DNA from: a virus
Taxonomy: Duplodnaviria; Caudoviricetes
Length of the DNA stretch: 64,000 nt
Strand: one strand, 5' to 3'
IMG/VR virus record: IMGVR_UViG_3300033148_005588
Location: 1 to 64,000 of that record
Numbering within the stretch: position 1 is the stretch's first letter; each line of letters starts with the position of its first letter. The notes under the pieces are model-generated. The model searched no databases. It saw only the letters and a program-made list of their open reading frames with translations, and was not told the origin of the DNA. The position numbers and the translations under genes were made by a program. This document shows, in pieces, positions 5,275-26,344 of this stretch.

Positions 5275-8200
5275 TTAAGCAAACCCCAAGTTGTAGAGAG
5301 TCTCTGCCCACCGAGAGATGCCCTCTGAAAAGGTCTGGTAGTTTTGCGCTCTGTTGTAGATGACTGCTGCTGGATGAATACACCAAGCAATCCAGCACCC
5401 GTACTTTGGGCTCCACTCCACTGTTCCGCTCAGAGCGTTTATGCCGCTGCTCTCTTGGCGGAAAAAGTAGTTCACTGTGTTGCCAAGAGCAAGAACCAAA
5501 AATGGCTTCACAATGGACAGCTCTCTTGAGAGCCAATACTTGGAGCAAATGTCAATTTGTGATGGCTTTGGAGTCTTTGTCTCAGATGGCCAACACTTCT
5601 GTACATTGGTGATGTAGAAGTCCTTCCTAGTCAAGTTGAACTTCTTTCCTAGCTCTGTCCAAAGCACTTCCCCGCCCCCACCAACAAACCCCTCTCCGAC
5701 TCTGTCTTCTTGGCGCCCTGGAGCCTCTCCAATAATACAAGCATTCAAGTTGCCTATGCTGGGCCGAACAACTTGTGAGCACTCTTTTCTCAGGGAGCAA
5801 TGCTCACAAGCAGACATTGCCTCTCCAAGTCTTTCCAGCTCTCTTCTCTGCCTTGGGCTTAGTGTTTTAGCCAGTCTCAAGGACAGGCCCCTAGTGTTGG
5901 CAGATTCCAAATCCTCCACAAACCAAAATTCTTCCGTATGCAAGGAGCTTGTTCTGTATGGATGATTTGCTTTAGCAAGAAGCCATCTTCCGGAGCAGTG
6001 CTCAATCTCTTCTTTGCGTTCTTGGTAGACCTTGGAACCAAATACAAGCATGGCGAAATCTGTCTGATCTTCAAAGTTACCATACACTCCGCCCAGTGCT
6101 CCTTTGGTGCCCTTTATGTCTCTGGCTTTGTCCGTTATAACATTTTGAACTTTCTCTCGGTAACCAAACTTTATCTGAGTCATGCGACCAAAATACAAAG
6201 AGGACTCTCGTTCTGTTCTCAAAAAGTTCACGCTGTTCAGCGGCCTTATAGAGAGAGAAGTTTTCAGCACTCTCAGCAACTTTCTAAACCTGTACATGGG
6301 GTCGGAACTAAGCTCAAAAGAAAAATACTCACTCAATCTTTCCAGCTCTTCCTCAGAGAACTGAGGCCGATCTTCTTCTTTGAAGAACAGCGCCCCTACA
6401 GCACTCAAGGTCTTTATGACCCGTGAGTTCACGGTGCGCTTGGGCAGGCGCGATTGGAGATCGTCTAGGCTCTTGTATGCTCCGTTCTTGAGGCGCTCTT
6501 TTTCTATGGCTTTGGCTGCTGCTGGGCCAATGCCCTTTATCTCACACAAAGGGACAACCAATGCCCCCGATTTGTTTATAGCCCATTCTTCTGCCTTGCT
6601 TTCATTTACATTAGGCAAGATAAACTTTAGCCCTAGCCTTCTCAGCTCCATGATACAATCTCTTTTCTTTAGGTCTGTGCCGTAGGTGAGCACCGCAACC
6701 ATAAACTCTGCTGGGTAGTGTACCTTTAACCACATATCCCAGTAGCCAATCATGGCATACTCCACAGCATGGGATTTGTTGAATCCGTAAGAGCCAAAGT
6801 GCTTCAACTCATCAAACACCTTTTTGGCCTCGCTGGGAGGGAGCGTTTTGCGCTTTTGACACCCCTCAATGAACAAAGACTCAAACTTCTTAAACTGCTC
6901 TACACCTTTAGACTTGCTAATTACTTTGCGAACTGTGTCAGCTGTTCTCCATGGCAAACCTCCCAAATCATAGAGCAGATTCATGACTTGCTCCTGGTAG
7001 AGAATAAGACCTCTTGTGTCTTTTGTAAGCTTCTCTATGAAGGGATGGACTTTAGGTATCTCTTGCTGTCCGTGCTTGCGTAAGCGATAGTCAACAGTCA
7101 TGCCACTGCGCAAGCACCCTGGGCGGTGAAGAGCATTCAAGTCTGTTAGTTGGTTAAAGTCCTCTATGCCAATCTCCTTACAAAGTTTTATCATCCCGGG
7201 AGTGTTGAATTGGAAACATCCTATCGTATTGCCTTGGGTAAATTGGTCGTAGACCTCCTTGTCGTCAAGAGGAATTTTCTCAAAGTCTATCTCCACCCTG
7301 TGCCTTTCTTTTATCAGCTTGGCGCAGTAGTTCAATATGGTCAGAGCCTTGAGCCCCAGAACATCCAGTTTCATTAGGCCGTTAAACTCAGCATCTTCTT
7401 TGTCCCAGTTGACACAGATTGTCCCTTGTTTGCGGCGTACAAGATTAGCACACAGAGCGTCTCTTAGATCGTGTCCTGCGATACAAATGGCTGCTGCGTG
7501 CATACCTGCTCGTACCTTTTGGCCCTCCAGGGCCATCGCTATGCGGCTGACTTCTGGGTATTTCTTCTTGAATTTTATGCCATCCTCAAAAGTGTTGAAG
7601 GCGTCCTCTATTGTAAAAGAGGCTCTAACATCACCACCACTGCGCACGACGATAGACTTTGCAGCAGCGTCAACATCCTTTGGGCTTACAGAAAACACTC
7701 TGCTAACGTCTCGCAGAGCACCACGCCCATGAAGTGCTGCAAAGGTAGACACTCCCGCCACATTGTACTTACCATACAACTTCTCCAGGTGCTCCCGGAT
7801 AAGGTCTCTCTTTATGTCTTCAAAGTCCATATCAATATCTGGCAGGTCAATGCGAGCTGGGCTGATGAACCTGGCAAATAAGAGATTGTACTTTAGTGGG
7901 TTGACCTTTGTTATACCAAGCACATAGGCAAGCAAACTGCCCCCCACGCTGCCCCTACCCGGACCAGTCATTATATCATTCTCTTTACACCACCGTATGA
8001 GTTCCCAAACAATGAGAAAGTACCTGGCAAAGCCAAGTTTAATGACTAACTCTAATTCCTCCTTGAGGCGTTCCTCGTATTCTTCTATGCTGGTGCCAAT
8101 CTCCTTATGATGCTCGGCTTTTTCATACAATCCATCAAGAGCCAACTCAATAAGCTTATCTTCATCAGACAGCCCCTCTTTGCCTGGCACTGGCACATGG

Positions 8201-13327: not shown

Positions 13328-13903
13328 TCACAAAAGTTCCTGATACCTTTTGCGCAGTTTGCGCATTGTGGTAGCACCAAAATGCTCCTCTAGCACCTTC
13401 AAAGGTGTCTTTAAGCGCAAGCTCTTGTCGGAAGCCCTCCCAGTGCGCCTATAGAAAACAGCCCTAGAGTGACGTCTGAACTTAAAGAGAAGTTCATTGG
13501 GCACTCCATCCAGAATAAGAGAAACAAACTCTTTGCTGATCTCTGCCAAACCGGCAATAACCTCAGCAAGCAGAACCTCTCTCTCTGGTGTTCTGTGGCA
13601 GGCTGCAGGAAAGGCCCCCTCTGCTGTGTCCTCTATAAAGGCAGAAGGCGACCTGTACTCTTTGCGGAGAAGGTTGCTGAAGTGCTGTTCAACACAATTC
13701 CAAATGTAGGTTATAAGCTTAACACTACACTTTGGATTATATGTTCTGAGAGCCTTCAAAACAGCAATTCTACCTTCTTGCCTTAGCACCTCCATTGAGT
13801 GGTACTCGCTGCGCTCAGGCAACCTAGCATAATACTTTTTGGCTATTTTGACAACTAAGCCTTCATAATCTCCCCATGCAGGTATTGCTTTCTCTTTTCC
13901 CAT
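13328..13903 (-). CDS. sigma70-family region-2 protein (phage sigma-like factor)
   Basis: YEGLVVKIAKKY..LRQEGRIAVLKALRTYNP..KLITYIWNCV matches the sigma region 2 pattern. Confidence 0.75.
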   Translation of the reverse strand: MGKEKAIPAWGDYEGLVVKIAKKYYARLPERSEYHSMEVLRQEGRIAVLKALRTYNPKCSVKLITYIWNCVEQHFSNLLRKEYRSPSAFIEDTAEGAFPAACHRTPEREVLLAEVIAGLAEISKEFVSLILDGVPNELLFKFRRHSRAVFYRRTGRASDKSLRLKTPLKVLEEHFGATTMRKLRKRYQELL

Positions 13904-13920: not shown

Positions 13921-14823
13921 TTAGAAGTCTATTTTTCTACGGAGTCGGACATCAGCAATCTTGCTGAAGTCACCAATTATTGACTCCATCTTCTTTCCTA
14001 TCAAGGAGCGAAAGTCATCATCATAGCGCAGCTCTTCAGCACCAATTCCATCCAAGGCATCTTTACATTCTTCCACGAGGGAAGAAAGTTTTTGGTACCC
14101 TAGAAAGCCATCCCAAGAGGAACTAAAATCATCCAGAAACTGCTTCAAAGAATTAACAGTGGCAGTGTTGATTTTGTCCCTGGAGCATTGCTCTTTCAAG
14201 CTTTCTATCTTGGACAGGAATTTCTGTGCAATGGTGCTTATGGCAACATCACGCATGCGCCTTGCCTCAGCTTGAATCTTTCTAACCTCTTCCTCATAGA
14301 CTTCCGGAGGAAGAACTTCAAGACTGCGATCAGGCGCCACAAAGTGTCTAAAGTACCACTCGAACCTAAAGATTCTCCTCATCACATCTTGAGAGGGATA
14401 CTTCTCCGGTCTGTAAAGATGAGGATACTTCTTTTGGAAATCCCTCTTGTCAGCCTCGTAACCGGAGAGGAACTGTTCCACCTTGGATAAAAATTCCTCT
14501 CTGCGCCTTCTCAAGCCTTCATCCACAATGGTGATGTTTTGCTTAAGAATGAAGACCAAGCCATCAACAGGAAAGGGCAGGCTGTACCTGGCCACAAACC
14601 GCTTGGCCTCTGAGCGCATCTCATGAAGCTGGCGCAAGTAGGTTTTGTCAGTGAGCAGGTCATACACTGCCCGGACAATTTCCACAGGCATTTGCTCGCT
14701 GAAGAAGTTTTCATCCAGCTTTGACCTTGCTCCCCAGCAACGTATCTTCAAGTGGACAAGGCAGCCCTTGGAGAACACGCTGCTGGCATCAACAGTTTTC
14801 TCTCTCTTTACTCTTTCTACCAT
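13921..14823 (-). CDS. DUF3150-like protein
   Basis: Start at 14823 directly after repeat A; L.I..WG..KL, YSLPF..G..F pattern; next to AAA/DUF1257/DUF2997 genes. Confidence 0.55.
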   Translation of the reverse strand: MVERVKREKTVDASSVFSKGCLVHLKIRCWGARSKLDENFFSEQMPVEIVRAVYDLLTDKTYLRQLHEMRSEAKRFVARYSLPFPVDGLVFILKQNITIVDEGLRRRREEFLSKVEQFLSGYEADKRDFQKKYPHLYRPEKYPSQDVMRRIFRFEWYFRHFVAPDRSLEVLPPEVYEEEVRKIQAEARRMRDVAISTIAQKFLSKIESLKEQCSRDKINTATVNSLKQFLDDFSSSWDGFLGYQKLSSLVEECKDALDGIGAEELRYDDDFRSLIGKKMESIIGDFSKIADVRLRRKIDF

Positions 14824-14921
14824 CTCTCTATATCCTCCTTGTTTTTGAATTTGGAATAGTGATTGACTACTCCATAGAGCATACCACCAAGAGTGGTGAT
14901 ATGCTCTAGCAGGAGTCAATC
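14821..14921 (-). repeat. hairpin+RBS intergenic cassette, copy A (divergent)
   Basis: Outer stem GATTGACT/AGTCAATC, loop variant CAAGA, SD AAGGAGGA before the ATG at 14823. Confidence 0.92.
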
Positions 14922-14925
14922 GTGC

Positions 14926-15093
14926 TTAGTCCTTTGAAGCTTGCTGCGAGAAAGACAGCAGCAGTTGCTGTACGCAGTAGCTGCACAGTACAAGTTTTGA
15001 AGCTGTGTGTATGGTTTTTCTACCGCTTGGATTATAGGATACCTCTTGTCTTCCACACCTTGGGCATCCATTTCTCTTTACTCTTTCCGCCAT
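14926..15093 (-). CDS. small zinc-finger protein (55 aa)
   Basis: Manual translation MAERVKRNGCPRCGRQEVSYNPSGRKTIHTASKLVLCSYCVQQLLLSFSQQASKD; CxxC..CxxC; exactly fills the space between repeats B and A. Confidence 0.75.
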   Translation of the reverse strand: MAERVKRNGCPRCGRQEVSYNPSGRKTIHTASKLVLCSYCVQQLLLSFSQQASKD

Positions 15094-15201
15094 CTCTTCT
15101 TATTAGTCCTCCTTGTTTTTGGATTAGGAGCAGCAGAATTAACCACTCCATTGAGCACACCACCACCACGCTGTGGTGATATGCTCTAGCAGAGGTTAAT
15201 C
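15091..15201 (-). repeat. hairpin+RBS cassette, copy B
   Basis: Near-identical to copies C, D and G. Confidence 0.95.
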
Positions 15202-15206
15202 TCCCT

Positions 15207-16634
15207 CTAGGCATCAAGTTTGAGCTTGCGCACCTTGCGTCTCTTACCTTTGAGAGAAAAATTACTGGCAGGTATGGCCCGACCATTAGCCCAATCTCTG
15301 AGTGCATCAATCTCCTCACTCATAGTTTTTGCCAAAGGCAAAACAAACCGTGCTGCTTGCCGGACTGACTCTTTTCTTCTGGAAGCAATACGACAGCAAG
15401 CCTCTATCTCAGCACCAGTCCAGGAGTCTGTATTTGGAAGATCGTCAATCTTCACAGAGTGCTTACCTGCCCAATAGGCCCAAATCTGGGCCTTTTCTTC
15501 CTCATTGGGCAAGTCAATGAAGAAGGGAGCGGTGTCCCAACGACCAGCCCTCAGGTATTCTGGTGGTATGCCTCTAAAGGAATTTGCTGTTGCTACAATG
15601 TACAAGTCTTTTGGCCTATTCTTGGCTTCTAAAAACTCCAGCCATTTGCCTGTGGCTCTTCTAGTTGTGCCGCTGTCCAAAGAACCATCGCCGGAGGCTC
15701 CAGCAAATTGCTTCTCAAACTCATCAATTATTAAAATACATTCTCCAACAGCAAACAGCAAGCTTTGGATCTCCCTAATGTTCTGGTCAGTCTCCCCCTG
15801 GTATTTGGAGAAAAGCCTACCGACGTCAAGCTTGAGAGTCAGCCGGCCAGTTTGCCCAGCAAGGCAATAGGCAAAGAGAGTCTTGCCGCAGCCTGGTGGG
15901 CCAACAACCATAACACCAAGGTCTCCCTGCCTCAGAGGCAGGACAAAGTCTTTGATGTTCTCATAGCCCTTAATGTCATCAAAGGTAAGGTCTGTCTTTA
16001 CCACTTCTATGATGCCTTTGCGCTCAATAGCCATAGCCTTGTGAGCATTAAGATAATCTCTGTTAAAACCATGAGATTTTATAACACTCAGTGCCAAGGC
16101 ATTTTCCACCTCAAGAGCAGTCAAGCCCTTAGCAGCAGACACCAGCTTTGCCATCTCTTCTCCCTCTGGCACCTTGACTCTGCCCTCTGTGCTCTCAGAA
16201 ACAAACTCCATTGTGGAGATTATTTCCTGGTCATCAGGCAAGGGCATCTCCAAGAGCTGTGTGTCTTTTTCCAGCTCTGTCGGTATCTCTGCCTTAGCAG
16301 AGATGATAACAGCAGCTTTGCCTTCAGACTTCCACAGCTCCACCCGATTCTGGACAGCCTGAATAAGTTGTGGCTTATTCAAGAACCACCCAAAGTTAGA
16401 CAGCACAAGAACTGTGTACGGAGAAGCTTTGTCCAAAAGGCCCAGAGCCTGGTCTGGGGGGAGACCCATAGTACAATCCCACTCTATAAGCTCGTACCTG
16501 CCCCCGTCTTTTCTCTCTGCCTTCTCAAGCAGAGAAGAGAGCAGTCGTTTGGCTCGGCGCAGCTCATCGGTTTGGAGCCAAAATAGGCTGTAGCCTGCCC
16601 TCAAATAGTCTACAATCTCTACCATCTTTTCCAT
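15207..16634 (-). CDS. AAA+ ATPase (Ycf46-like)
   Basis: GPPGCGKT Walker A, ILIIDEFEK Walker B, ATAN, PPEYLRAGRWD, WTGAEIE. Confidence 0.9.
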   Translation of the reverse strand: MEKMVEIVDYLRAGYSLFWLQTDELRRAKRLLSSLLEKAERKDGGRYELIEWDCTMGLPPDQALGLLDKASPYTVLVLSNFGWFLNKPQLIQAVQNRVELWKSEGKAAVIISAKAEIPTELEKDTQLLEMPLPDDQEIISTMEFVSESTEGRVKVPEGEEMAKLVSAAKGLTALEVENALALSVIKSHGFNRDYLNAHKAMAIERKGIIEVVKTDLTFDDIKGYENIKDFVLPLRQGDLGVMVVGPPGCGKTLFAYCLAGQTGRLTLKLDVGRLFSKYQGETDQNIREIQSLLFAVGECILIIDEFEKQFAGASGDGSLDSGTTRRATGKWLEFLEAKNRPKDLYIVATANSFRGIPPEYLRAGRWDTAPFFIDLPNEEEKAQIWAYWAGKHSVKIDDLPNTDSWTGAEIEACCRIASRRKESVRQAARFVLPLAKTMSEEIDALRDWANGRAIPASNFSLKGKRRKVRKLKLDA

Positions 16635-16739
16635 CTCTTCTTAGTCCTCCTTGTTTTTGGATTAGGAGCAGCAGGATTAACCACTCCATTGAGCACACCA
16701 CCACCACGCTGTGGTGATATGCTCTAGCAGAGGTTAATC
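16632..16739 (-). repeat. hairpin+RBS cassette, copy C
   Basis: 65-nt hairpin at 16675-16739 containing the upstream stop codon; SD and ATG at 16634. Confidence 0.95.
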
Positions 16740-16958
16740 AGCGTGGTTCTTCTTTATAGCAATCACAACTTCAACAGCCTTGCCCAATCGGTTAGCTTTT
16801 GCCCATTGTGGCCCGCAGTGCTCATCAGCCTCTTTGGCTTTCTTAATTGCCAGTTCAGGCAAACAAGCAATTGTCTCTATGTCTATGTAAGCATATCCAT
16901 CGGTAGAGTATCTCACAACTGCCCAAGAAGTTTGCTCTTTAATTTGCTCATTATGCAT
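16734..16958 (-). CDS. hypothetical protein
   Basis: Bounded by repeats D and C. Confidence 0.7.
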   Translation of the reverse strand: MHNEQIKEQTSWAVVRYSTDGYAYIDIETIACLPELAIKKAKEADEHCGPQWAKANRLGKAVEVVIAIKKNHAD

Positions 16959-17060
16959 TCTTTAGTCCTCCTTGTTTTTGGATTAGGAGCAGCAGAATTA
17001 ACCACTCCATAGAGCACACCACCACCACGCTGTGGTGATATGCTCTAGCAGAGGTTAATC
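16956..17060 (-). repeat. hairpin+RBS cassette, copy D
   Basis: As above; TAGAGCA/TGCTCTA pairs perfectly in this copy. Confidence 0.95.
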
Positions 17061-17435
17061 AGCGTAGTCCAAAATAACCTCAACATCACCATTATCCAAA
17101 TCATTCACCCAGTAAGAGTAAACGTCTGGATTCTGGTTGGCTTCAGCCACTACCACTGCTTTTGAATAGGCTTGTAACAACCTTCCAAGGTTATCCATAG
17201 AACCAACCTCAGAACCCCAGTTGTCATACCATAGCTTTCCCTCTTTGTCAATAGCCAGAGAGTATCTCCAACCCTTAATCTCCAGTTTAGCTACAGCTTC
17301 CACGCTCTGATGCCCAAACATCCGGACAGTTTGCTTACCAATATCCAACTGCCCAAGCCCTGTAAGATTGGCAACAGCACTGAGAGTATTTAAGTTTGTG
17401 ATCTTTACTGAAGAGTATACTGATGTGTGACTCAT
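17055..17435 (-). CDS. DUF1257 (Ycf35-like) protein
   Basis: MSHTS..KITNLNTL N-terminus, wyDNWG, L.QAYS; adjacent to DUF2997-like and AAA genes. Confidence 0.7.
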   Translation of the reverse strand: MSHTSVYSSVKITNLNTLSAVANLTGLGQLDIGKQTVRMFGHQSVEAVAKLEIKGWRYSLAIDKEGKLWYDNWGSEVGSMDNLGRLLQAYSKAVVVAEANQNPDVYSYWVNDLDNGDVEVILDYAD

Positions 17436-17454
17436 TGTCTAAACCTCCTCTCTT

Positions 17455-17661
17455 TTAGCCACAATGGCCTTCTGGCAGGCCATCTCTGGTGCATACAGAG
17501 TCGTCCGCCTCATAGTATTCTTCTTTCAATTCTGTCCTCGCAGGAGGGCCAAGCACTTTGTTCAGGAACGCCGTGCGCTCAAAGCACTTACTTCCTTTGT
17601 CGCCCTCAACATCAGTGTGGACAGACCCATTAGGCTTTAAAATAATTCTCACTCTTGGCAT
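17455..17661 (-). CDS. DUF2997-like protein
   Basis: I.LKPNGSV..DVEGDKG.KC..T..L..LG..ELK.EYY pattern. Confidence 0.75.
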   Translation of the reverse strand: MPRVRIILKPNGSVHTDVEGDKGSKCFERTAFLNKVLGPPARTELKEEYYEADDSVCTRDGLPEGHCG

Positions 17662-17679
17662 TTTGGTAGACCTCCTCTT

Positions 17680-17886
17680 TTAAGTGGTTTCTTCTTCTCC
17701 GCAAATTGGACACTTCTTTCCCAAAGGGATAGGTGTCCCACAACACCACCATACTTCCTCGTGTGGAGTACAAGCAGAGCACCGCTTTGTAGTAAAGCGG
17801 AGAAAGCTACAAGTTTGCTCCTGAGAGCATTTGCAGCATTGATCCAAATACCTTATAAAAACTTTTCTCTTGCTCATTTTGTACAC
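17680..17886 (-). CDS. small Cys-rich protein
   Basis: Multiple CxxC motifs; co-oriented. Confidence 0.5.
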   Translation of the reverse strand: MYKMSKRKVFIRYLDQCCKCSQEQTCSFLRFTTKRCSACTPHEEVWWCCGTPIPLGKKCPICGEEETT

Positions 17887-18212
17887 CGCCCATTAGCAAG
17901 TACTGTCACAAAAATCTCCAACCCGTACAGCTCCCTAGGCACAGGCCCCTTAATAATGAAGCCTGGAGAGCAACCACAGGCACAGCCAGCAGTTTGGCTC
18001 CAAGAGGAAGTGAATTGAGACAAGCAAGGATAGCCTGCCTTTGTGAAAACTGCTGGTAACACTTTTCTGTATTGATTGTACGGCCTAGACCACCTATTGA
18101 TTAGGTTTTCTATAGCATCTTCCTCGTCCACAAAGAAGTAAACCCTGGGCCTAGCAAAGCTGTCCTTTCTTTGCGACACACTCACACTTTTGATTTCTAC
18201 CATCTTTTCCAT
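17874..18212 (-). CDS. hypothetical protein
   Basis: Starts at the repeat E RBS; TAGCACGCSPGF motif. Confidence 0.75.
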   Translation of the reverse strand: MEKMVEIKSVSVSQRKDSFARPRVYFFVDEEDAIENLINRWSRPYNQYRKVLPAVFTKAGYPCLSQFTSSWSQTAGCACGCSPGFIIKGPVPRELYGLEIFVTVLANGRCTK

Positions 18213-18316
18213 CTCTTCTTAGTCCTCCTTGTTTTTGGATTAGGAGCAGCAGGATTAACCACTCCATTGAGCACACCACCACCAAGAGTGGTGATATGCT
18301 CTAGCAGAGGTTAATC
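18210..18316 (-). repeat. hairpin+RBS cassette, copy E
   Basis: Loop variant CAAGA as in copy A, stems as in copy C. Confidence 0.95.
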
Positions 18317-18482
18317 AAAGCTCTTTGTCTATGTGCTTGCGCACCAGTTCATAAAGTTCCTCAGCGTCTACTCCAAAAACTTTTGCGTAGTCTGAGGACG
18401 CATTCTCGGCGGAAGTGATTCCGCTCTTCACAGTGGAGAAAACTTCCTTGACCATCCATCCCTCAATCTTCTTTTTCCCCAT
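18315..18482 (-). CDS. hypothetical protein (55 aa)
   Basis: Start reassigned to MGKKKIEG after AAGGAGG; stop overlaps repeat E. Confidence 0.6.
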   Translation of the reverse strand: MGKKKIEGWMVKEVFSTVKSGITSAENASSDYAKVFGVDAEELYELVRKHIDKEL

Positions 18483-18654
18483 GAGTAAATCCTCCTTTTC
18501 TCTTAATCCTGAAAATTGGTGGTTTACCATTAAAATTTTCCTCCAAAAAAAGCCTGTATCTCTTACACTTGCGTGAGCAATTACAGTAACAGGCTTTCCA
18601 GTGGACGAACCTACTGAAGTTCCCACCAACATAACAGGGAACATAGTTACCCAT
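18463..18654 (-). CDS. small Cys-rich hypothetical protein
   Basis: MGNYVPCY start after AAGGAG; CYCNCSRKC. Confidence 0.4.
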   Translation of the reverse strand: MGNYVPCYVGGNFSRFVHWKACYCNCSRKCKRYRLFLEENFNGKPPIFRIKRKGGFTHGEKED

Positions 18655-18676
18655 TTGTCTCTCTTCTCCTTTCCGC

Positions 18677-18901
18677 TTATCCTGGATAATCAAACGCACA
18701 AGCGTGCTCTTCTCCCTCCAAGAGTAACCGCTTGATCAGTGGCTTGTGACTTGGATTGAACTGATCTAAGTCATAGGCCAGACCGCTGCCATCGGTGGCA
18801 ATGTACCTGCCTTCCCGGACAGGCAGGTCCCAAAAGGCAAACCCTACATGAGCACCAAAGCTCAGGCAAAACCTCTTAGGCTTTCTGCGTACTCTTTCCA
18901 T
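18677..18901 (-). CDS. hypothetical protein
   Basis: Co-oriented ORF coupled to its neighbours. Confidence 0.5.
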   Translation of the reverse strand: MERVRRKPKRFCLSFGAHVGFAFWDLPVREGRYIATDGSGLAYDLDQFNPSHKPLIKRLLLEGEEHACAFDYPG

Positions 18902-19295
18902 TTTTCTTGGCTCCTCTCTTTTCCCAAGTCAAGACCTCTTTTGTGATGATGGTACAGTGCTCATCAATCCACATAGAGCCCAGCTTCTTGCGGATCAGCT
19001 CCACACTGGGATTTGATATCTCTATGTAGGTCTGCTCTCCCACATCAGCAATAATGTCTTCTTTTGGAGGCAGCTGAGCCGTTTGCCTCTCTTTCTTTGT
19101 GAAAGCCCTGTTGCCATAGGGAACTGAGTCACCAGCATACATCAGCCGCCCCAGGCGCTCTCTCACCCTGGCAACTTCTTCTTTAGCTTTCTCCAGAAGA
19201 GACTCTTTTTTATCCAGCTCCTTAACAAGCTTAGTCAAGAGCTCCTCTCTCTTAGCCACGGTTCTCCGGGAGACAATTCTTTTCTTCTTTTCCAT
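18876..19295 (-). CDS. hypothetical coiled-coil protein
   Basis: True start at the repeat F RBS (MEKKKR). Confidence 0.7.
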   Translation of the reverse strand: MEKKKRIVSRRTVAKREELLTKLVKELDKKESLLEKAKEEVARVRERLGRLMYAGDSVPYGNRAFTKKERQTAQLPPKEDIIADVGEQTYIEISNPSVELIRKKLGSMWIDEHCTIITKEVLTWEKRGAKKNGKSTQKA

Positions 19296-19396
19296 CTCTC
19301 TATATCCTCCTTGTTTTTGGATTTGGAGCAGCAGAATTAACCACTCCATTGAGCATACCACCCTGCTGTGGTGATATGCTCTAGCAGAGGTTAATC
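19293..19396 (-). repeat. hairpin+RBS cassette, copy F
   Basis: Loop variant CCTGCT; SD spacer identical to copy A. Confidence 0.95.
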
Positions 19397-19399
19397 AGC

Positions 19400-19708
19400 T
19401 TAAACTTCTACATCAAGACCCAAGCGCCTTTTCTGCCCCTCTTCATTTTTCTGGTAGACAGACAAAACAAGATCACCATCACTATTAAAGATAATATTCC
19501 ACCCTCTGCCTTTAATCTCTTTAAGGTATCCGTCCAAAGTTGCGCTCACTCCTTGGTCAGCTAAACTATCCACAACAGCATCCAGATCGCATTTTGGGCC
19601 AGACCACCATGATCTTGTCACACCTCTCTGGCGCTCATAGCTTTCTTTGATGAAACCTATACATTCCAAAGCCTCAGACACTTTTCTATATGGTGTTACT
19701 CTACCCAT
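19400..19708 (-). CDS. hypothetical protein
   Basis: Bounded by repeats G and F. Confidence 0.75.
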   Translation of the reverse strand: MGRVTPYRKVSEALECIGFIKESYERQRGVTRSWWSGPKCDLDAVVDSLADQGVSATLDGYLKEIKGRGWNIIFNSDGDLVLSVYQKNEEGQKRRLGLDVEV

Positions 19709-19813
19709 CTCTTCTTAGTCCTCCTTGTTTTTGGATTAGGAGCAGCAGAATTAACCACTCCATTGAGCACACCACCACCACGCTGTGGTGATATGCTCTA
19801 GCAGAGGTTAATC
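19706..19813 (-). repeat. hairpin+RBS cassette, copy G
   Basis: Near-identical to copies B and C. Confidence 0.95.
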
Positions 19814-20024
19814 AAATCTTGCAGACCTTGTAGGTGAAACGAGTTGGACTAAAGGGACTGTTCATTCTTTTGGTAAGTCTGGCTGCCTCTTTCTCAGCCT
19901 CTTCCTTATCCTCAGTTTCATAGATTTCGTCGTCTCTTTTAAGCCACGCCTCTGCATAGCCCATAAGACCGCCGCTTCTTATAGCTCTTATACGATACAT
20001 AGCATCTCTTCTCCTTTCTATCAT
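19812..20024 (-). CDS. hypothetical protein
   Basis: Stop overlaps repeat G. Confidence 0.6.
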   Translation of the reverse strand: MIERRRDAMYRIRAIRSGGLMGYAEAWLKRDDEIYETEDKEEAEKEAARLTKRMNSPFSPTRFTYKVCKI

Positions 20025-20215
20025 CGGACCTCTACATACTTCATAGTAACCTGCAATAAATGGTCATAGTTGCCACCAAAAGCTTCTTCTGTATACTTCT
20101 TTGCCAATTCTTGGTGCCCTGCTCTTTTAAGAGCCTTTTGCACTTTGGCCAAGATAAAAAAGGCATTACCATCTTCTCCTGTCAGTTTTACTTTCACATT
20201 TGTCAACGGTTCCAT
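20021..20215 (-). CDS. small conserved phage hypothetical protein
   Basis: VKLTGEDGNAFFILAKV..ALKRAG..YDHLL pattern; starts at the RBS-only repeat copy H. Confidence 0.75.
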   Translation of the reverse strand: MEPLTNVKVKLTGEDGNAFFILAKVQKALKRAGHQELAKKYTEEAFGGNYDHLLQVTMKYVEVR

Positions 20216-20246
20216 CTCTTCTTAGTCCTCCTTGTTTTTGGATTTG
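20213..20246 (-). repeat. partial cassette copy H (RBS part only)
   Basis: Matches the RBS portion of the repeat but lacks the hairpin. Confidence 0.9.
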
Positions 20247-20249
20247 GAA

Positions 20250-20925
20250 AGTTTTGAACCCTCCATAGTGTCCCCAAGCAAGCAGCAAGGCTCACTCAGG
20301 AGCACTAGCAAAGCTCAAAACAAGGAGGAGGACATAAGAGATTTTCATCACACCACAGAATGGCCTCACCTACGACCGCTTTCCCCTGGGGCCGTAACTT
20401 GCCCGTTTCCCTCAACTTACTCCCGCAGTTTCAGTGTCTACTCTTAACCAGGTGCGTGGCACCGGCACGAGCAAGTCCTAAGCTGCTTCAGTTACTCACA
20501 GCCCTCAATGTTTCTGTGGTCGGTTTACAGTTTCTCAGGACTTAGCACCAGCCACACCATCAAAAGGATGTGGCTACGGGTTGTCCACCTTCTGCCTGCC
20601 CCGCCTATTACGATAGGAGATATTTGGCTTGACCAGGATACCTGTTTATGGATTGGCTAAAATCCCTCGATATGTTAAAAAGAGAAGAAGTCCTATCTGT
20701 CTTTCCCTCTATCTCTTACTGAATTGCCCCTCTTATCAAGGTCAGGTTTAACGTGGTAGGCTTAACCAGTACTGTCGAGAAATAATCTCTCTACCCTTCC
20801 ATAGTTAAGCACAAGGCCTCAGCACCATCAGCATTTTCTTCCTCCCCAGGCCAAGGGATTGGTTTTTTAAGGATTTAACCTCTTTTTAAGAAGGCCATCC
20901 AGTTTCTCAAAGAGCTATAATAATT
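20250..20925 (-). ncRNA. candidate long structured leader / ncRNA
   Basis: No credible ORF downstream of promoter P4; many complementary segments (see findings). Family not recognised. Confidence 0.4.
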
Positions 20926-20931
20926 ATAGTT

Positions 20932-20953
20932 ATTATAAGGCAAAAGTAAAGAA
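20932..20953 (-). promoter_or_regulatory. phage-type promoter P4 (variant)
   Basis: TTCTT-TAC-TTTTGC-CT-TATAAT, 2 mismatches to consensus, with long A/T tracts upstream. Confidence 0.6.
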
Positions 20954-21206
20954 AAAAAATAACATTTTTAGAAAAAAATATATTAACGATTTCAATAAGT
21001 TATAAAAAAAAATTAGGTTTAAACGCACTAGAACCTGTTTCTTAATAACCTATTGAATTCATTAAGGAAATTAGATTCTGGCATTATGTTAACTCATTGA
21101 TTTTACTAAGGTTTAATAGAAGACTCCAAAAACAAGAGAAGCTAGGTTAAAGTGCTGAGATTACTTGATATTCTTTTGAGGAAACGTAACCTACTGGAAT
21201 TATTAT

Positions 21207-21301: not shown

Positions 21302-22267
21302 TCATTCTACATACCTTACAGCATGCTTTTTCTCCACTAGGAGAAACCTTTGCTTGCCCAAAGAGGCAACATCCTGCTCGGGGGGCAGCTTAACCACAGT
21401 TATGTCTTCAAAGAAGGCACTCATCTCACTAGCAATATCCATAGCCCTAACATAAGCATCACCATCAAGAGCTATGCGGAGGCTGCTCACTCCCTCATAA
21501 GCAGCCAAGTGGCTCAAAAGCCCCACCTGCCACCGACTGATCTTATTTGTAAACAAGGCTAAAGTGCAATCATCATCCAGAGCCCAAACGTCAGTTACTC
21601 CCTCTACCACTCTCACAAACCCATGAGAGCTGTCAAAGAAGTCCCATGCGTAGAGGCATTGCCTGGGACTCTTCTTGCTCTCACTAATGGGGCAATTCAA
21701 GTACCTAAGCTCACTCTGCCCAAGGTAGTCTCTGCCAAGGTAAGTGACTAGCTCTCCTTCATAGTACACAGGCACAATAATGCGGCCTGTGTATTTGCCT
21801 GATGGGCAAAAACAAAGACCATACTTCTCTGCAAGATGCGCAGGGTCAAAGCCCCTAGAAGAGAGATAGGATGAAGCCTTGCGCTTGTGAGCTTTGAAGT
21901 ATGTTTTGCTGTGGAAGGTTTCTGCCTCTTCTGGTAGGGAGACTTTTCTTCTTGGTTTGACTAGGGGCGGGGCGTCTGGCTCTGGGAGCCCCACCTCGTC
22001 ACTGAACTCTTTGGCGATGGCTTTTGCCTCCCGGAAAGAGCAGCCCTCTATGGTCATAATTAAGTCATACAGGGACGGGCGCCGATCAAGATGGGCAAAA
22101 TTACAAAGCCAGCAATTGAGCAAGCCCTTGCTCTTGTGGATGCCTAAGTGCTTTCTTGTCTCTCCGCAAAAAGGGCAGTCGATGTTCACATCGTTTGAGC
22201 CGACATTGTCCCCTGACTCTCTGTAGTCAATACCCCGTGAGTCTAAATACCCAATTACATCAAACAC
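21302..22267 (-). CDS. DNA primase (Zn-finger + Toprim)
   Basis: CPFC..H..NCWLC zinc finger, GRIIVP, VVEGVTD, ALDGDA Toprim motifs. Confidence 0.9.
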   Translation of the reverse strand: MFDVIGYLDSRGIDYRESGDNVGSNDVNIDCPFCGETRKHLGIHKSKGLLNCWLCNFAHLDRRPSLYDLIMTIEGCSFREAKAIAKEFSDEVGLPEPDAPPLVKPRRKVSLPEEAETFHSKTYFKAHKRKASSYLSSRGFDPAHLAEKYGLCFCPSGKYTGRIIVPVYYEGELVTYLGRDYLGQSELRYLNCPISESKKSPRQCLYAWDFFDSSHGFVRVVEGVTDVWALDDDCTLALFTNKISRWQVGLLSHLAAYEGVSSLRIALDGDAYVRAMDIASEMSAFFEDITVVKLPPEQDVASLGKQRFLLVEKKHAVRYVE

Positions 22268-23849
22268 TCTTTTCCTCCTGCCCCCTTAGCACTCTCTTGA
22301 ATTCTTCATAGCTCAGAGTTTTGTAGAAAACATCAACCCCTTTTCTCAGTCTGTGCACTATGGTGTTTTCAATAGTGTTGGCCCCTATAAGGTCATAGTA
22401 AAACACTCTGCGTGCTCGTTGAGTCTTTCTATGAATACGCTTCTCACATTGTAGCCTGTTGATCACTTTGTCTCCATTAGAGAAGAACACACAATAAGTG
22501 GCAGAGACAAGATTTATGCTTGCCCCGCCGCTCAAGGGATGGGCTATGACCACTCGACAGTCTCTCTCTTCTTCAAACCTGCGTATGTGTGCGTGCTTGT
22601 CTTTTGTTCTACCACCTAAAACAGCATACCCAACACCCATCTTCTTCAAAAGAGACTCTATAAACACCTCCTCCATTATGAACTCGTGGAATATGACCAC
22701 CTTGTGTTCAGAGACCAACCCCTCCAGTAAGTCCTCCAGCAAGTCCAGCTTGGGGTTTGACTTAAAGACAAAGTTGCTCTTCTTGATGAAGCCAGAGCAA
22801 ATTTGCCTAAAGACCATGGACTTGTTTGCTGCATCCATTCTCTTGAACCTCTGGCTTGCCACCTTGAGCAAATCCTCTGTGGCCTTGGAGTAAGCTTCCT
22901 CCTGCTCCCGGGACAAGGTATACTTAACCACTCTGTACACTTTGTCAGGCAGATCAGCTACTTCTGACTCAGAGTACCGTATGGCCTTGGAGTAGAGCTT
23001 GGATTGGAGTATGCGCAGACCTCGCTCAGATGGTGCATAGTTAGGAATCCAAATGCCCCTTGACTCCAGTAAACGACCCCTGTCTTCAAAGTAAATGTCT
23101 CTGTATTTGGAGAAACTTGATGCGAAAGTCTTGCCTCTGTCTAATAGGTAGTATTGGGCCCAGAGGTCTAGCAAACTATTGCCAAAGGGGGTGCCTGTCA
23201 GCAGCAGCCTGAAAGGTATTCTGGCTCCCAGAGTGGCTAGGATTCTAAAGTTGCGGCTTGTAGGAGACTTGACTTTGTGGCTTTCGTCAACAACCAGAGC
23301 GTCAAACTTCACCGCCAGCAACCTCTTAACACAAGAGCGGTCAATCTTCGTTCTGTGCCTTACCTTTGCCCCTTTGGGAAGCTTGCGCCTGCGACTCAGA
23401 GCTGCCCTCAGCCCCTCATAAGACATTATAAAGAAGTTGGAGGAGGCCGACATCTCTTCCACCAAGCCTAGCCTGTCCTTGCCCCTAACGCACAATGGGC
23501 GCAGCTGGGAATGGAGCCTAACCTCATCGGCCCAATTTTCAACAGCACTGTTAAGGCACACCACCAAGACCTTAACCTTGCCCTTGCTGGCGTGGAAAAC
23601 AAAATCAATATACCGACAGACATCAATAGCGACTTTTGTTTTGCCGACCCCCATATCGGACGTGTCGGCAAAACCATCAATCTTCACCGGCACCAGTCTT
23701 TTCTCTTTTTTCTCAGGAGAGAGGCAAGCAATAGCGGCCAAAAAGCTTGCCAATTGGTTTGTCCACGGCCTTGTATGAAAGGAAAAGCCTCTAGGAACAA
23801 TCTTTTCTAGTTCTTTCCTAGAGAGAAGTTTTATATCATTCCAGTTCAT
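22260..23849 (-). CDS. SNF2/DEAD-like helicase
   Basis: DMGVGKT, VVDESH, LLTGTP, KLDLL, GASINL..A, EKRIHR motifs. Confidence 0.9.
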   Translation of the reverse strand: MNWNDIKLLSRKELEKIVPRGFSFHTRPWTNQLASFLAAIACLSPEKKEKRLVPVKIDGFADTSDMGVGKTKVAIDVCRYIDFVFHASKGKVKVLVVCLNSAVENWADEVRLHSQLRPLCVRGKDRLGLVEEMSASSNFFIMSYEGLRAALSRRRKLPKGAKVRHRTKIDRSCVKRLLAVKFDALVVDESHKVKSPTSRNFRILATLGARIPFRLLLTGTPFGNSLLDLWAQYYLLDRGKTFASSFSKYRDIYFEDRGRLLESRGIWIPNYAPSERGLRILQSKLYSKAIRYSESEVADLPDKVYRVVKYTLSREQEEAYSKATEDLLKVASQRFKRMDAANKSMVFRQICSGFIKKSNFVFKSNPKLDLLEDLLEGLVSEHKVVIFHEFIMEEVFIESLLKKMGVGYAVLGGRTKDKHAHIRRFEEERDCRVVIAHPLSGGASINLVSATYCVFFSNGDKVINRLQCEKRIHRKTQRARRVFYYDLIGANTIENTIVHRLRKGVDVFYKTLSYEEFKRVLRGQEEKSV

Positions 23850-25233
23850 CAGATTCCTGCGAGGCAGCTTCTCTTAACAACTCTCTGTACTCAAGCCAGT
23901 TATACAAACCCCAATCAAGGACAAATTGCCCTATGCGAAAGTCTCTCTTTATCCAAACTCTGGTTCCAAACGGGCCATCTGTGTTCTTGAACAGAAACAG
24001 CCTGGCAAAGCCCTTTTGTGCCTCTAGGGCGAAATCTCCGTCTTGCCTAGAGATAGTGTTTATACTGATGCCTACAGTGGCTTTTCTCACTTTGTTTATG
24101 TCTTCCCCTACATTACCAGAAGAGAGCCAAAGCTTGTGCTCGGCTTTTCTTTGGGCTTGGGTTGTGGTACAGATACAGACATCATTCTCTTCCTCTTTGG
24201 CGTAGTTCTTTAGCCATGTGTATGTGGCAGTGTGCCTTTCTATTTTTTCTCTGTATCGGCCCTCTGGGGGAGTAAAGTCGTCTGCAGAATCAATCATTAC
24301 AAAGCGGGGGCGTCTGCCATATTTCTTCTCCACCTTGTCCAAGATATTAGGCAACTCATCAACTCTCATACTCTTCTCATCATCACTCAGCAGAATCACA
24401 TTACTCTTCTTGACCATGCTCTTCTCCACCACCTCTGAAGCTCGTCTTGAGTCTTGCCTGATCTCTCGGGAAGTCATCCCGGTGAAGCACATTCTCAAAC
24501 GCAGTCTTACTTGTCGGTTACTGCGCTCCAAGTCTATCAGCAAAGGTGTTTCGCCGAGGCGTGCTGCATGTTTAACAAGATGGCTTGCGCACCAAGACTT
24601 ACCTACACTTGTGTAGCCAAGAACCAAGATAAAAGAACCCACGCACAAGCCTCCACCCAGCGCTCTATCAAGAGCCGGAATATTGAACCTAGAGACAGCA
24701 TCTCGCTCCTGGTCAAGAGGAGACTCCAGCAAGGACTCTATCTCGCTTGTGCCTGTTCTCTCTTCTACCTCTCTCAGGGCAGTGCGCACTTTTACAAGAG
24801 CCTGATTTGGGTCAAAGCTCGGTATCTCTGTCTCCCTCGCAAGAGAGGAAGTCAGATTGTGAACTATTCTTCTCTTAATGAAAGTGTCAATCTGGTCTAA
24901 GAAGAACAACGTATTGGCAGAAGCCTCCCTACCGACAAACTCAAGCTTGCCGAGAAAGGCTATGTACTTCTCTTGATCCTCTTCTCTTATTAGAGGGGAG
25001 CGGCTCGCTATGACCTCTCCTATGGTCTCTATGAGATTGTTTATGCCTGGTGCAGCAAAAAACTTCTTGTAGTGGCTTATGGCTAGTCTTGCTATGGTTT
25101 GGCGTACAGAAGAGGAAAAATACTCAGGTTTTATCTTTCTCCTGACGCACTGTTCAAGAAACTTTGAATCTGTAACCATCAAGCAGATGATTTGAGTTTG
25201 CGCATCTCTCCCTAACTCAAATTTCGCAGACAT
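23836..25233 (-). CDS. DnaB-like replicative helicase
   Basis: LDRALGGGL, GYTSVGKS Walker A, VMIDSAD, TTTQAQR. Confidence 0.85.
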   Translation of the reverse strand: MSAKFELGRDAQTQIICLMVTDSKFLEQCVRRKIKPEYFSSSVRQTIARLAISHYKKFFAAPGINNLIETIGEVIASRSPLIREEDQEKYIAFLGKLEFVGREASANTLFFLDQIDTFIKRRIVHNLTSSLARETEIPSFDPNQALVKVRTALREVEERTGTSEIESLLESPLDQERDAVSRFNIPALDRALGGGLCVGSFILVLGYTSVGKSWCASHLVKHAARLGETPLLIDLERSNRQVRLRLRMCFTGMTSREIRQDSRRASEVVEKSMVKKSNVILLSDDEKSMRVDELPNILDKVEKKYGRRPRFVMIDSADDFTPPEGRYREKIERHTATYTWLKNYAKEEENDVCICTTTQAQRKAEHKLWLSSGNVGEDINKVRKATVGISINTISRQDGDFALEAQKGFARLFLFKNTDGPFGTRVWIKRDFRIGQFVLDWGLYNWLEYRELLREAASQESDELE

Positions 25234-25283: not shown

Positions 25284-25850
25284 CTAGATATCAACAATCT
25301 CCACTTGGCACCGTTTGGCCTTCTGTCTCTCCCTGAACCTTTGAGGAGATTGTCTCTTGATGATTGCCTTGATCTTTTTCTTTAGGCTTTCTTTGTCCCC
25401 ATCGAAAGACACTCCCCAATACTCTTCGTCGTGTTGATCTTCCCAAGAGGAAATCCATTCTTCAAACACAATACAGTTTCTGGCCGTTGGGGCCAATTGC
25501 CTCAAGTAAGGAGTTATTTTTTTTAAAGGTTTGCCGTATCGCTGGTAGGATTCATATATGGAGCAAAAATAGTCCCTCGCCAATATCTCTAAGGGAATAG
25601 AAGAATCATTCTCTTTCTTCAAAGACTCAAGATACTCCACAATAGAACAAAGCAAGTTGTAGTAGACGCTGCTTCTGGAGGAATCTACAAGCTTTGACGC
25701 AAAGCGTTTGTAACTGACTGGCTTGTGACTAAATTGAGGCTCTACATCATCAGACAGCACTCTCAGCAGCAGCATCACTTTTGGCTTCATGAGACGGTAT
25801 CTGGCTTGGCGCAGGGTGCTGTTTCTTCTTACTCTTTCCGTTCTGTCCAT
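25284..25850 (-). CDS. hypothetical protein upstream of helicase
   Basis: Start reassigned to MDRTERVRR (SD GAGGAGG). Confidence 0.6.
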   Translation of the reverse strand: MDRTERVRRNSTLRQARYRLMKPKVMLLLRVLSDDVEPQFSHKPVSYKRFASKLVDSSRSSVYYNLLCSIVEYLESLKKENDSSIPLEILARDYFCSIYESYQRYGKPLKKITPYLRQLAPTARNCIVFEEWISSWEDQHDEEYWGVSFDGDKESLKKKIKAIIKRQSPQRFRERQKAKRCQVEIVDI

Positions 25851-25869
25851 AGCCTCCTCTCTCTCTATT

Positions 25870-25990
25870 AACAAAACGAATAGGAGAGAGGGGAGGAGAC
25901 AGGAACAAGGAGGAAGTCCTGTCTGTACTATTTTTGTGGTCTTACCACAACTCTCCCCTTTACTCTCCTATTCTCTCTCCCACCGAGCTG
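25870..25990 (-). ncRNA. candidate sRNA: three-way junction with anti-SD loop and U-rich 3' end
   Basis: Promoter P3 immediately upstream. Stems: 25878-88/25963-73 (11 bp), 25889-95/25953-59 (7 bp), 25897-904/25917-24 (8 bp), 25934-40/25944-50 (7 bp). Followed by GUUUUGUU. Confidence 0.6.
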
Positions 25991-25995
25991 CTTAT

Positions 25996-26017
25996 ATTAT
26001 AAGCCAAAACGGTAGAA
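25996..26017 (-). promoter_or_regulatory. phage-type promoter P3
   Basis: TTCTA-CCG-TTTTGG-CT-TATAAT. Confidence 0.75.
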
Positions 26018-26041
26018 AATCAAACAGCCAATCAACTCTTT

Positions 26042-26344
26042 CTAGTGATGGCGAGGATTGTCCATCCTCTTGCTGAGTCCTATAGCTTGAGCTTCAAGAA
26101 GTCTTTGTATTTTTGCGTCAATGTTCAGGATCAATTGATACAACCTATCTTGATCTTTCATGTATTGATCCCTGAGAACAAATCCCTTAGACAGGTCTGT
26201 TATGCGTTGGGCATTGCGACTTGACTCAACCTTTGACCATCCAGAGACAAAAGTCAACAGAGCTATGAGAAAGTAGACTAAATACGTCAGCCACTTAGTC
26301 CCATTGTAAGTGCTGCTGTTTATCCTGTTATCAGGACTCGTCAT
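26042..26344 (-). CDS. single-TM coiled-coil protein (lysis accessory?)
   Basis: One hydrophobic helix then a coiled coil; within the lysis region. Confidence 0.55.
   Translation of the reverse strand: MTSPDNRINSSTYNGTKWLTYLVYFLIALLTFVSGWSKVESSRNAQRITDLSKGFVLRDQYMKDQDRLYQLILNIDAKIQRLLEAQAIGLSKRMDNPRHH

Follow-up and report, generated by a model that had tools for sequence, protein, structure and literature searches.

A promoter-proximal RNA loop complementary to the standardised ribosome-binding sites of an eight-gene array: a candidate riboregulator in the replication-operon leader of an orphan phage

In Firmicutes, small RNAs with C-rich loops, such as S. aureus RNAIII and RsaE/RoxS, use unpaired C/U-rich loops to pair with the Shine-Dalgarno (SD) sequences of many mRNAs. 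In phage T4, RegB cleaves GGAG within SDs and RegA binds ribosome-binding sites (RBSs), and many early genes are down-regulated. The c4 RNA and the CI RNA of phage P4 each derive from the leader of the very operon under their control. In the c4 antisense RNA of phages P1 and P7, loop-exposed sequences pair around the RBS and block translation (PMC12197685), and the 2025 review of phage sRNAs lists no one-to-many regulator of standardised RBSs (PMC12197685).

Phages with private, standardised RBSs were first described in 2011; the most familiar example is the SAS of cluster K mycobacteriophages, an invariant 13-mer with an SD core and non-16S flanks that stands 3-9 nt before 11-19 non-structural genes (PMC3203893). 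The SAS is often preceded by an inverted repeat, and subcluster K1 has one reverse copy without a gene start (PMC3203893). Whether the partner of the SAS is a protein or an RNA was left open by its discoverers (PMC3203893), and its role was still called undefined in papers of 2024 and 2025 (PMC11373665, PMC12699233); the associated ESAS repeats contain SigA-like promoters (PMC11373665). In the phage described here, such a private RBS may have as its partner an RNA loop that a different operon carries in its leader.

The phage is represented by a complete IMG/VR record of 82,832 bp with direct terminal repeats of 114 bp, of which bases 1-64000 constitute the window, that is, the whole stretch of DNA analysed. 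Its genes lie on the minus strand throughout; across the whole genome, the coding strand is strongly asymmetric, with 216 occurrences of GGAGG vs 33 of CCUCC, and RBS regions have a very high GA content. This is an orphan phage: a search for DNA relatives among GenBank phages gave no match, every match of its helicase among cultured phages was <25% identical, and its 188-aa orphan protein found only itself in viral contigs, GenBank phages and a set of 5.8 billion proteins. Likewise, a helicase profile search of GTDB genomes for a host or prophage clue returned no match. The element under study, a leader behind a promoter designated P3, is located between the tail/lysis region and the replication module, which comprises the following genes:

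25284-25850, minus strand: 188-aa orphan, first gene of the replication module (start ATG 25850)
23836-25233, minus strand: DnaB-like helicase, 3' of the 188-aa orphan
22260-23849, minus strand: SNF2 helicase, 3' of the DnaB-like helicase
21302-22267, minus strand: primase, 3' of the SNF2 helicase

The primase gene is followed by about 1 kb without ORFs (21301-20250) and then by an array of small genes with a repeated leader, downstream of which come the DUF3150 protein and a sigma-like protein (Sigma70_r2, 13328-13903). Within the ORF-free region, ~670 nt (20250-20950, minus strand) lie behind a TTTACT-16-TATAAT promoter (20950-20923), which an AT-rich region at ~20930-21200 precedes. A post-primase gap of this kind, 0.9-1.3 kb long, is conserved in the relatives L094, L095, L099 and L101 and in the contigs of P0002 and P0009. 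The gap could represent a large structured RNA and/or an origin; no Rfam match was obtained in the post-primase ORF-free stretch of the window.

The genes beyond the gap share a standardised RBS, the parts of which are as follows:

14833-20236, minus strand: eight-gene array, the predicted targets, with the invariant 15-mer CAAAAACAAGGAGGA before each gene
14833, 15107, 16645, 16966, 18223, 19305, 19719 and 20226, minus strand: starts of the array RBS 11-mer AACAAGGAGGA
14823, 15093, 16634, 16958, 18212, 19295, 19708 and 20215, minus strand: array start codons
20317-20329, minus strand: UCCUCCUUGUUUU, a further anti-RBS of 13 nt within the leader of the array itself, ~90 nt 5' of the first array RBS

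The array products include an AAA ATPase and a DUF3150 protein. On the minus strand the 11-mer occurs in exactly 8 copies, each 8-14 nt 5' of an ATG, and on the plus strand in 2, at 25904 (the loop complement described below) and at 20319; with at most 1 mismatch, there are 15 matches vs 2.3 expected. The plus-strand copy at 25904 was considered as a real RBS and dismissed, having no start codon at a usable distance. A search of IMG/VR with an RBS 16-mer yielded nothing beyond single chance matches. Pairing of the RBS flanks with 16S rRNA was rejected as well, given the conserved 3' end of 16S rRNA.

The eight RBSs are copies of a single ~100-nt hairpin-plus-RBS unit, in which the core 15-mer CAAAAACAAGGAGGA is invariant in 8/8 copies and the flanks vary. 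Such invariance amid varying flanks points, at the level of sequence, to selection on the target site, and we count it in favour of the leader as a riboregulator. Yet the initial annotation, which had presented eight cassette RBSs complementary to one loop, is upheld only as to their presence at all eight genes: the sites being repeat copies rather than eight independent events, the window holds one match, not eight. Each array unit (window 14821-19813) also carries a long hairpin, e.g. GAGCAUAUCACCAC-AGCG-UGGUGGUGGUGUGCUC, 5' of the invariant 15-mer, which may serve as a processing site, an insulator or a terminator. The second anti-RBS, UCCUCCUUGUUUU, appears placed to sequester the first array RBS in cis and looks like an SD-sequestering long hairpin. 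In L095, positions 6737-6751 (L095:6737-6751) carry CCUCCUAUCCUCC, ~100 nt 5' of the first post-gap gene, the RBS of which is GGAUAAGGGAGG.

Upstream of the replication module, the leader is composed of the following features:

26023-25996, minus strand: promoter P3, sigma70 type (-35 TTGATT at 26023-26018, 16-nt spacer, -10 TATAAT at 26001-25996)
25878-25973, minus strand: three-way-junction RNA, a computed fold that is unchanged when downstream sequence is included
25904-25916, minus strand: anti-RBS, the loop CUUCCUCCUUGU plus its closing U, with UCCUCCUUGUU at 25914-25904
25877-25870, minus strand: U-rich tail GUUUUGUU, directly 3' of the outer stem
25853-25869, minus strand: SD region of the replication operon itself, AAUAGAGAGAGAGGAGG, which the formed junction is predicted to leave in a loop

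The promoter that had been proposed before a non-coding segment is indeed there: P3, identical to the sigma70 consensus at 10/12 positions and with a transcription start inferred near 25989, precedes the folded ~120 nt. Its supposed dependence on a phage sigma factor fares worse, given that P3 is a near-consensus promoter of sigma70 type and that the homologous promoters of relatives are of the same type. Indeed, a sigma70-type promoter directly 5' of the orphan gene is general in relatives (L094, L098, L099, L110, L111), which favours P3 as the replication-operon promoter and disfavours phage-sigma dependence. The boxes at the homologous position are the following:

L094 and L111: TTGCGA-17-TATAAT
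L098: TTAACA-17-TATAAT
L099: TGnTATAAT

Several further features of these promoter regions were recorded. In L106, an SNP creates TTGACT just 5' of the -35 box, through natural variation or an assembly error. In the 104-kb relatives (L101:9370-9410, L111:9370-9420), the -10 TATAAT lies 7 nt 5' of the ATG of the orphan homologue, which suggests a leaderless replication-operon mRNA in L101 and L111. A second sub-clade of relatives (L113, L114, L116, L118, L124, L125, L128, L142, L147, L148, L154 and L105) has, in the region 5' of the orphan gene, a conserved palindromic motif, AAAGTAAAG...CTTTACTTTTAG, which overlaps the promoter between divergent genes and looks like an operator; a related sequence, CTTTACTTTTGCC, is present in the array promoter region of the window.

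The segment behind P3 folds into a three-way junction. The minimum free energy of 25992-25866 is -51 kcal/mol (z -4.5), and 0/200 dinucleotide shuffles (n=200, mean -34.3 +/- 3.7) folded as stably. Segment 25896-25878 pairs with 25973-25963 and 25958-25952 in an outer stem of 11 + 7 bp, which encloses hairpin 1 (25950-25934, 7 bp) and hairpin 2 (25925-25897, 8-9 bp), the latter with the 12-nt apical loop CUUCCUCCUUGU at 25916-25905. Thus, refolding gave the stems originally described, and the loop is exposed: nine of its bases have an unpaired probability of 0.87-1.0 in the ensemble. Because the antisense strand folds almost as stably (-48.1 vs -51.0 kcal/mol), energy alone cannot pick the strand. 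A covariance search of the whole window against Rfam 15 gave 0 matches at the gathering score, and for 25600-26300, with E up to 10, returned just noise of the microRNA-precursor type (<=24 bits vs cut-offs of 47-150); the element is no member of the C4, riboswitch, T-box or any described leader family.

The element sits 20 nt 5' of the SD of the replication operon and is, for that reason, at least a 5' leader. Its end resembles a terminator, with the 11-bp stem GAAUAGGAGAG/CUCUCCUAUUC followed by GUUUUGUU, but what would be the terminator 'loop' is an 80-nt branched domain, owing to which a simple terminator scan made no call at this site; by its sequence, the tail may act as a partial termination or attenuation site. 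A U-rich tail after the outer stem is present just in the window, L098 and L099 and absent in L095 and L119, so that a conserved terminator across the leaders was not shown. Given also that the element fronts the operon's SD, the discrete, terminated sRNA of ~120 nt that was first envisaged gains no support.

Within hairpin 2, UCCUCCUUGUU (25914-25904) complements the array RBS AACAAGGAGGA without a mismatch over 11 nt, and the perfect match to every cassette RBS initially reported is thereby confirmed for 8/8 array RBSs. Seven of the 11 pairs are plain SD/anti-SD pairing, to which four non-SD bases are added. The significance of these four bases can be gauged from the 33 sense CCUCC sites of the genome, which we compared by the longest stretch over which each complements the array units. 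Complementarity extends over 13 nt for the array leader and over 11 nt for the junction loop; the remaining 29 sites stay at or below 8 nt through the SD. Of the non-coding gaps of at least 90 nt, just two contain sense CCUCC, namely, the P3 leader and the gap that precedes the array. Hence, the complementarity of the loop to the array RBS is an outlier and more than an SD/anti-SD coincidence. What the leader displays is an unpaired seed capable of an 11-bp duplex with eight target RBSs. By eye, no extension of the duplex past 11 bp was seen, which RNase III would need. The possibility that the loop is a remnant of an inverted cassette copy was set aside, since similarity is limited to the 11-mer (likewise compared by eye).

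Potential targets were also ranked genome-wide, by duplex energy together with the opening energies of both partners, across 125 crudely called genes. The array genes ranked 2, 4, 5, 7, 8, 10, 12 and 18, and their net energies, opening costs included, lie between -7 and -11 kcal/mol; opening an array RBS costs 0.5-3.7 kcal/mol, and 4.9 for the first gene. The expectation that the cassette RBSs would outrank others is thus borne out in their high placing but not in exclusiveness, because the non-array RBSs at 72237, 42373 (a 1368-aa gene), 68115 and 64829 score equally. In this model, the array RBSs are preferred partners of the loop, though not the sole ones. By contrast, the cis pairing of the loop with the operon's own SD, the alternative offered in the initial annotation, amounts to 7 bp including G-U, with the own gene outside the top 30 of 125, and was rejected as the main role of the loop on these grounds.

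A different cis interaction is predicted for the stem. The own SD region (25869-25853) has a near-complement in the polypyrimidine 3' arm (25896-25878). The free fold, at -57.8 kcal/mol, leaves the SD in a loop; blocking or deleting the 5' arm gives a fold of -39.5 kcal/mol in which the SD is buried by the 3' arm. In silico, the leader is thus capable of the two mutually exclusive pairings of an SD/anti-SD/anti-anti-SD switch. In L095, the SD itself forms the 3' arm of the outer stem. Given that the 3' arm can bury the SD and that in L095 the two coincide, the leader plausibly also sets the translation or stability of the replication mRNA. A 1-nt deletion in L106 (L106:1000-1010 vs window 25853-25862) changes the SD of the 188-aa gene from GGAGG to GGGG, and might be natural or an assembly error.

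The loci of relatives were gathered by exact-protein look-up and profile scans. In metagenomes, the helicase has relatives at 38-52% identity (L099 43%, L095 47%, P0002 52%), and the conserved gene order is orphan, helicase, SNF2, primase, ~1-kb ORF-free gap, small genes, AAA, DUF2997, DUF3150, sigma. Long structured leaders with an exposed CCUCCU occur only in the window (and L106), L095/096/097, L098 and L099. The leader of L119 has a 15-bp stem without an exposed CCUCC, the contig of P0002 has a 406-nt gap at the leader position, leaders are short or missing in other relatives, and most of the more distant ones have none of this kind. L106, from a separate assembly, differs from the present phage by just a few SNPs and carries no information on covariation.

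A CU-rich segment stands at the homologous leader position in L099 and L095. The genes beyond the gap of L099 have a standard RBS of their own, GGAGGAAGG(G/A)AA-ATG. The L099 leader contains the complement of its own array RBS, GAGGAGGAAGGAA, over 13 nt, compared to <=8 nt at 16 other CCUCC sites, and the L095 leader contains that of its own array-type RBS, AGGAGGAAGGAA, over 12 nt, compared to <=9 nt elsewhere. The best eight predicted targets of the L099 leader segment are all post-gap genes, at -9.6 to -13.5 kcal/mol, and pre-gap genes, including the leader's own, score -5 or worse as targets; the same applies to L095. The leaders of the window, L095 and L099 share the core CUUCCUCCU; the non-SD flanks of the RBSs are AACA, upstream, in the window and AAGGAA, downstream, in L095 and L099. 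Since the L095 and L099 leaders complement their own RBS flanks, unlike those of the window, the leader follows lineage-specific flanks. This tracking of target by seed spans two or three lineages only, in low-complexity sequences, L095 and L099 being maybe not mutually independent; their partners are purine-only or pyrimidine-only runs, so that chance matches are inflated, and the loop of the window also pairs over 8 nt with the L099-type RBS. Accordingly, of the covariation anticipated between loop and cassette RBS, the match of L099 and L095 to their own flanks stands, and covariation of structure does not: it was not demonstrable across the leaders, where the CU loop sits in different hairpins and the topologies of the window, L095, L098 and L099 are too divergent for a trustworthy alignment.

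On the basis of sequence and modelling, we tentatively favour, with somewhat less than even confidence, the reading that the 5' leader of the replication operon is a riboregulator whose anti-RBS loop acts on the array genes. P3 would drive an RNA that folds as a three-way junction, with hairpin 2 displaying CUUCCUCCUUGU in an open 12-nt loop; this RNA would be either a short transcript ending at GUUUUGUU or the 5' end of the replication mRNA. The loop would pair over 11 bp with the invariant AACAAGGAGGA block of the eight array genes, and the resulting duplex would occlude 30S binding, so that array translation would fall in step with rising transcription of the replication operon. Within the leader of the array itself, the 13-nt anti-RBS would hold the first array gene in cis. 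With its purine 5' arm lost or occupied, the junction could use the 3' arm to sequester the SD of its own operon, and the same leader would probably also set translation of the replication genes. One point against the riboregulator is that P3 and the array promoter both look sigma70-like, such that the two transcripts may appear together.

The main rival, possible in our estimate yet doubtful, is a purely cis-acting leader, be it a 5' stabiliser, an attenuator or an SD switch, in which the loop match is a by-product of a CU-rich, anti-SD-like element. The position of the element, behind P3 and ahead of the replication operon's SD, suits this explanation, as do the burial of AAUAGAGAGAGAGGAGG by the 3' arm once the 5' arm is blocked or removed, the identity of the outer-stem 3' arm with the SD in L095, the deletion in the own SD of the near-identical L106, and the long promoter-proximal stems that relatives such as L119 possess irrespective of loop content. 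However, a leader acting in cis only leaves unexplained both the four non-SD matching bases of the array RBS and the 12-13-nt matches of L099 and L095 to their own, different flanks, and the loop pairs less well with the own SD than with the array RBSs. The proposal from which the analysis started is a separate ~120-nt sRNA, fired by the phage sigma, self-terminated and acting as a timed master shut-off of the early cassette.

That proposal is unlikely as stated. The phage does encode a sigma-like protein, and the 11-bp stem followed by GUUUUGUU does look like a terminator, with U-rich tails also in L098 and L099; yet P3 matches the host sigma70 consensus, as do the homologous promoters of relatives in which the structure is absent and replication genes are simply driven, the U-tract is missing in L095 and L119, and the sigma gene lies downstream of the array, so that array and sigma are probably co-expressed, which speaks against a timed shut-off of early genes. 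A function of the polypurine/polypyrimidine inverted repeat at the level of DNA, as a protein-binding palindrome or cruciform or as a promoter-primed R-loop origin of the kind found at the T4 and T7 origins, seems decidedly unlikely. The element is immediately 5' of the helicase and primase genes, its 31-nt purine run would give a stable RNA:DNA hybrid, and the antisense strand folds almost equally well; against this, L099 does not share the purine-rich character of the 5' arm, the AT-rich region at ~20930-21200 is far more origin-like, and the match of an exposed loop to RBSs finds no explanation. Finally, a chance match in a GA-rich/CU-rich genome, with a loop devoid of function, is highly improbable. 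The RBS regions of this phage are generally GA-rich, and the 11-mer adds just four bases to the 7-nt SD/anti-SD core, but the two sense-strand copies of the anti-RBS 11-mer both fall in non-coding leaders close to a promoter, the match stands out empirically from those of other CCUCC sites, and the pattern recurs in two relatives.

If the leader is indeed a riboregulator, how does it compare with the systems described above? The c4 RNA shares with it the design of a phage RNA that carries loop-exposed anti-RBS sequences; it differs in having one target operon (ant) rather than eight or more standardised RBSs. The C-rich-loop sRNAs share the C/U-rich loop and the relation of one RNA to many targets, but they are host-encoded and free-standing, possess their own terminators, act on ordinary SDs and show no homology to the leader. 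RegA and RegB of T4 are, likewise, phage factors that act on many initiation regions; they are proteins, whereas the factor proposed here is an RNA loop. Neither c4 nor the C-rich-loop sRNAs are known to target a standardised group of phage RBSs.

The closest likeness is to the SAS/ESAS system. In both cases, non-structural genes are closely preceded by a private invariant motif in which flanks that do not pair with 16S rRNA surround an SD core, an inverted repeat or hairpin stands upstream, and one copy in the opposite orientation is unlinked to a gene start. SD core, conserved flanks, non-structural genes and upstream hairpin are all found in 8/8 array units, a likeness of function only: the SAS GGGATAGGAGCCC and the array motif CAAAAACAAGGAGGA have no sequence homology, and the phages and their hosts are unrelated. 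Furthermore, the array repeat hairpins, in distinction from the ESAS, fill the intergenic spaces of one operon-like array. The reverse SAS of a cultured cluster K member was examined in turn:

L158:39790-39910 (record 59,789-59,909): Mycobacterium phage Anaya reverse-SAS hairpin, with a covarying hairpin just upstream

On its sense strand, the reverse SAS of Anaya, GGCCUCCUAUCCC, forms the 10-nt apical loop of a hairpin (fold z -4.7) within a 385-nt non-coding gap, and 133 cluster K records share this region. Of six divergent cluster K members, four retain the loop; it is absent in SirPhilip and decayed in Amohnition, where the SAS is unchanged, and this decay argues against the riboregulator reading. 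In the cluster K papers PMC3203893, PMC11373665 and PMC12699233, no RNA partner for the SAS is proposed and the apical-loop position of the Anaya reverse SAS is unmentioned. The loop has the same design as hairpin 2 of the P3 leader and, by analogy, Anaya is an independent occurrence of the anti-RBS loop design, without being a proof of function.

Thus, the design recurs both in relatives of the phage and in an unrelated, cultured phage group, cluster K. With considerable reservation, we propose that phages with a private, standardised RBS block might also encode a co-evolving, promoter-proximal anti-RBS loop that controls the whole block. If true, this would amount to one-to-many translational control without a protein and to a general class of phage riboregulator, which would provide synthetic biology with a compact, orthogonal RBS/anti-RBS pair. 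The same principle would also explain the reverse-oriented SAS of cluster K.
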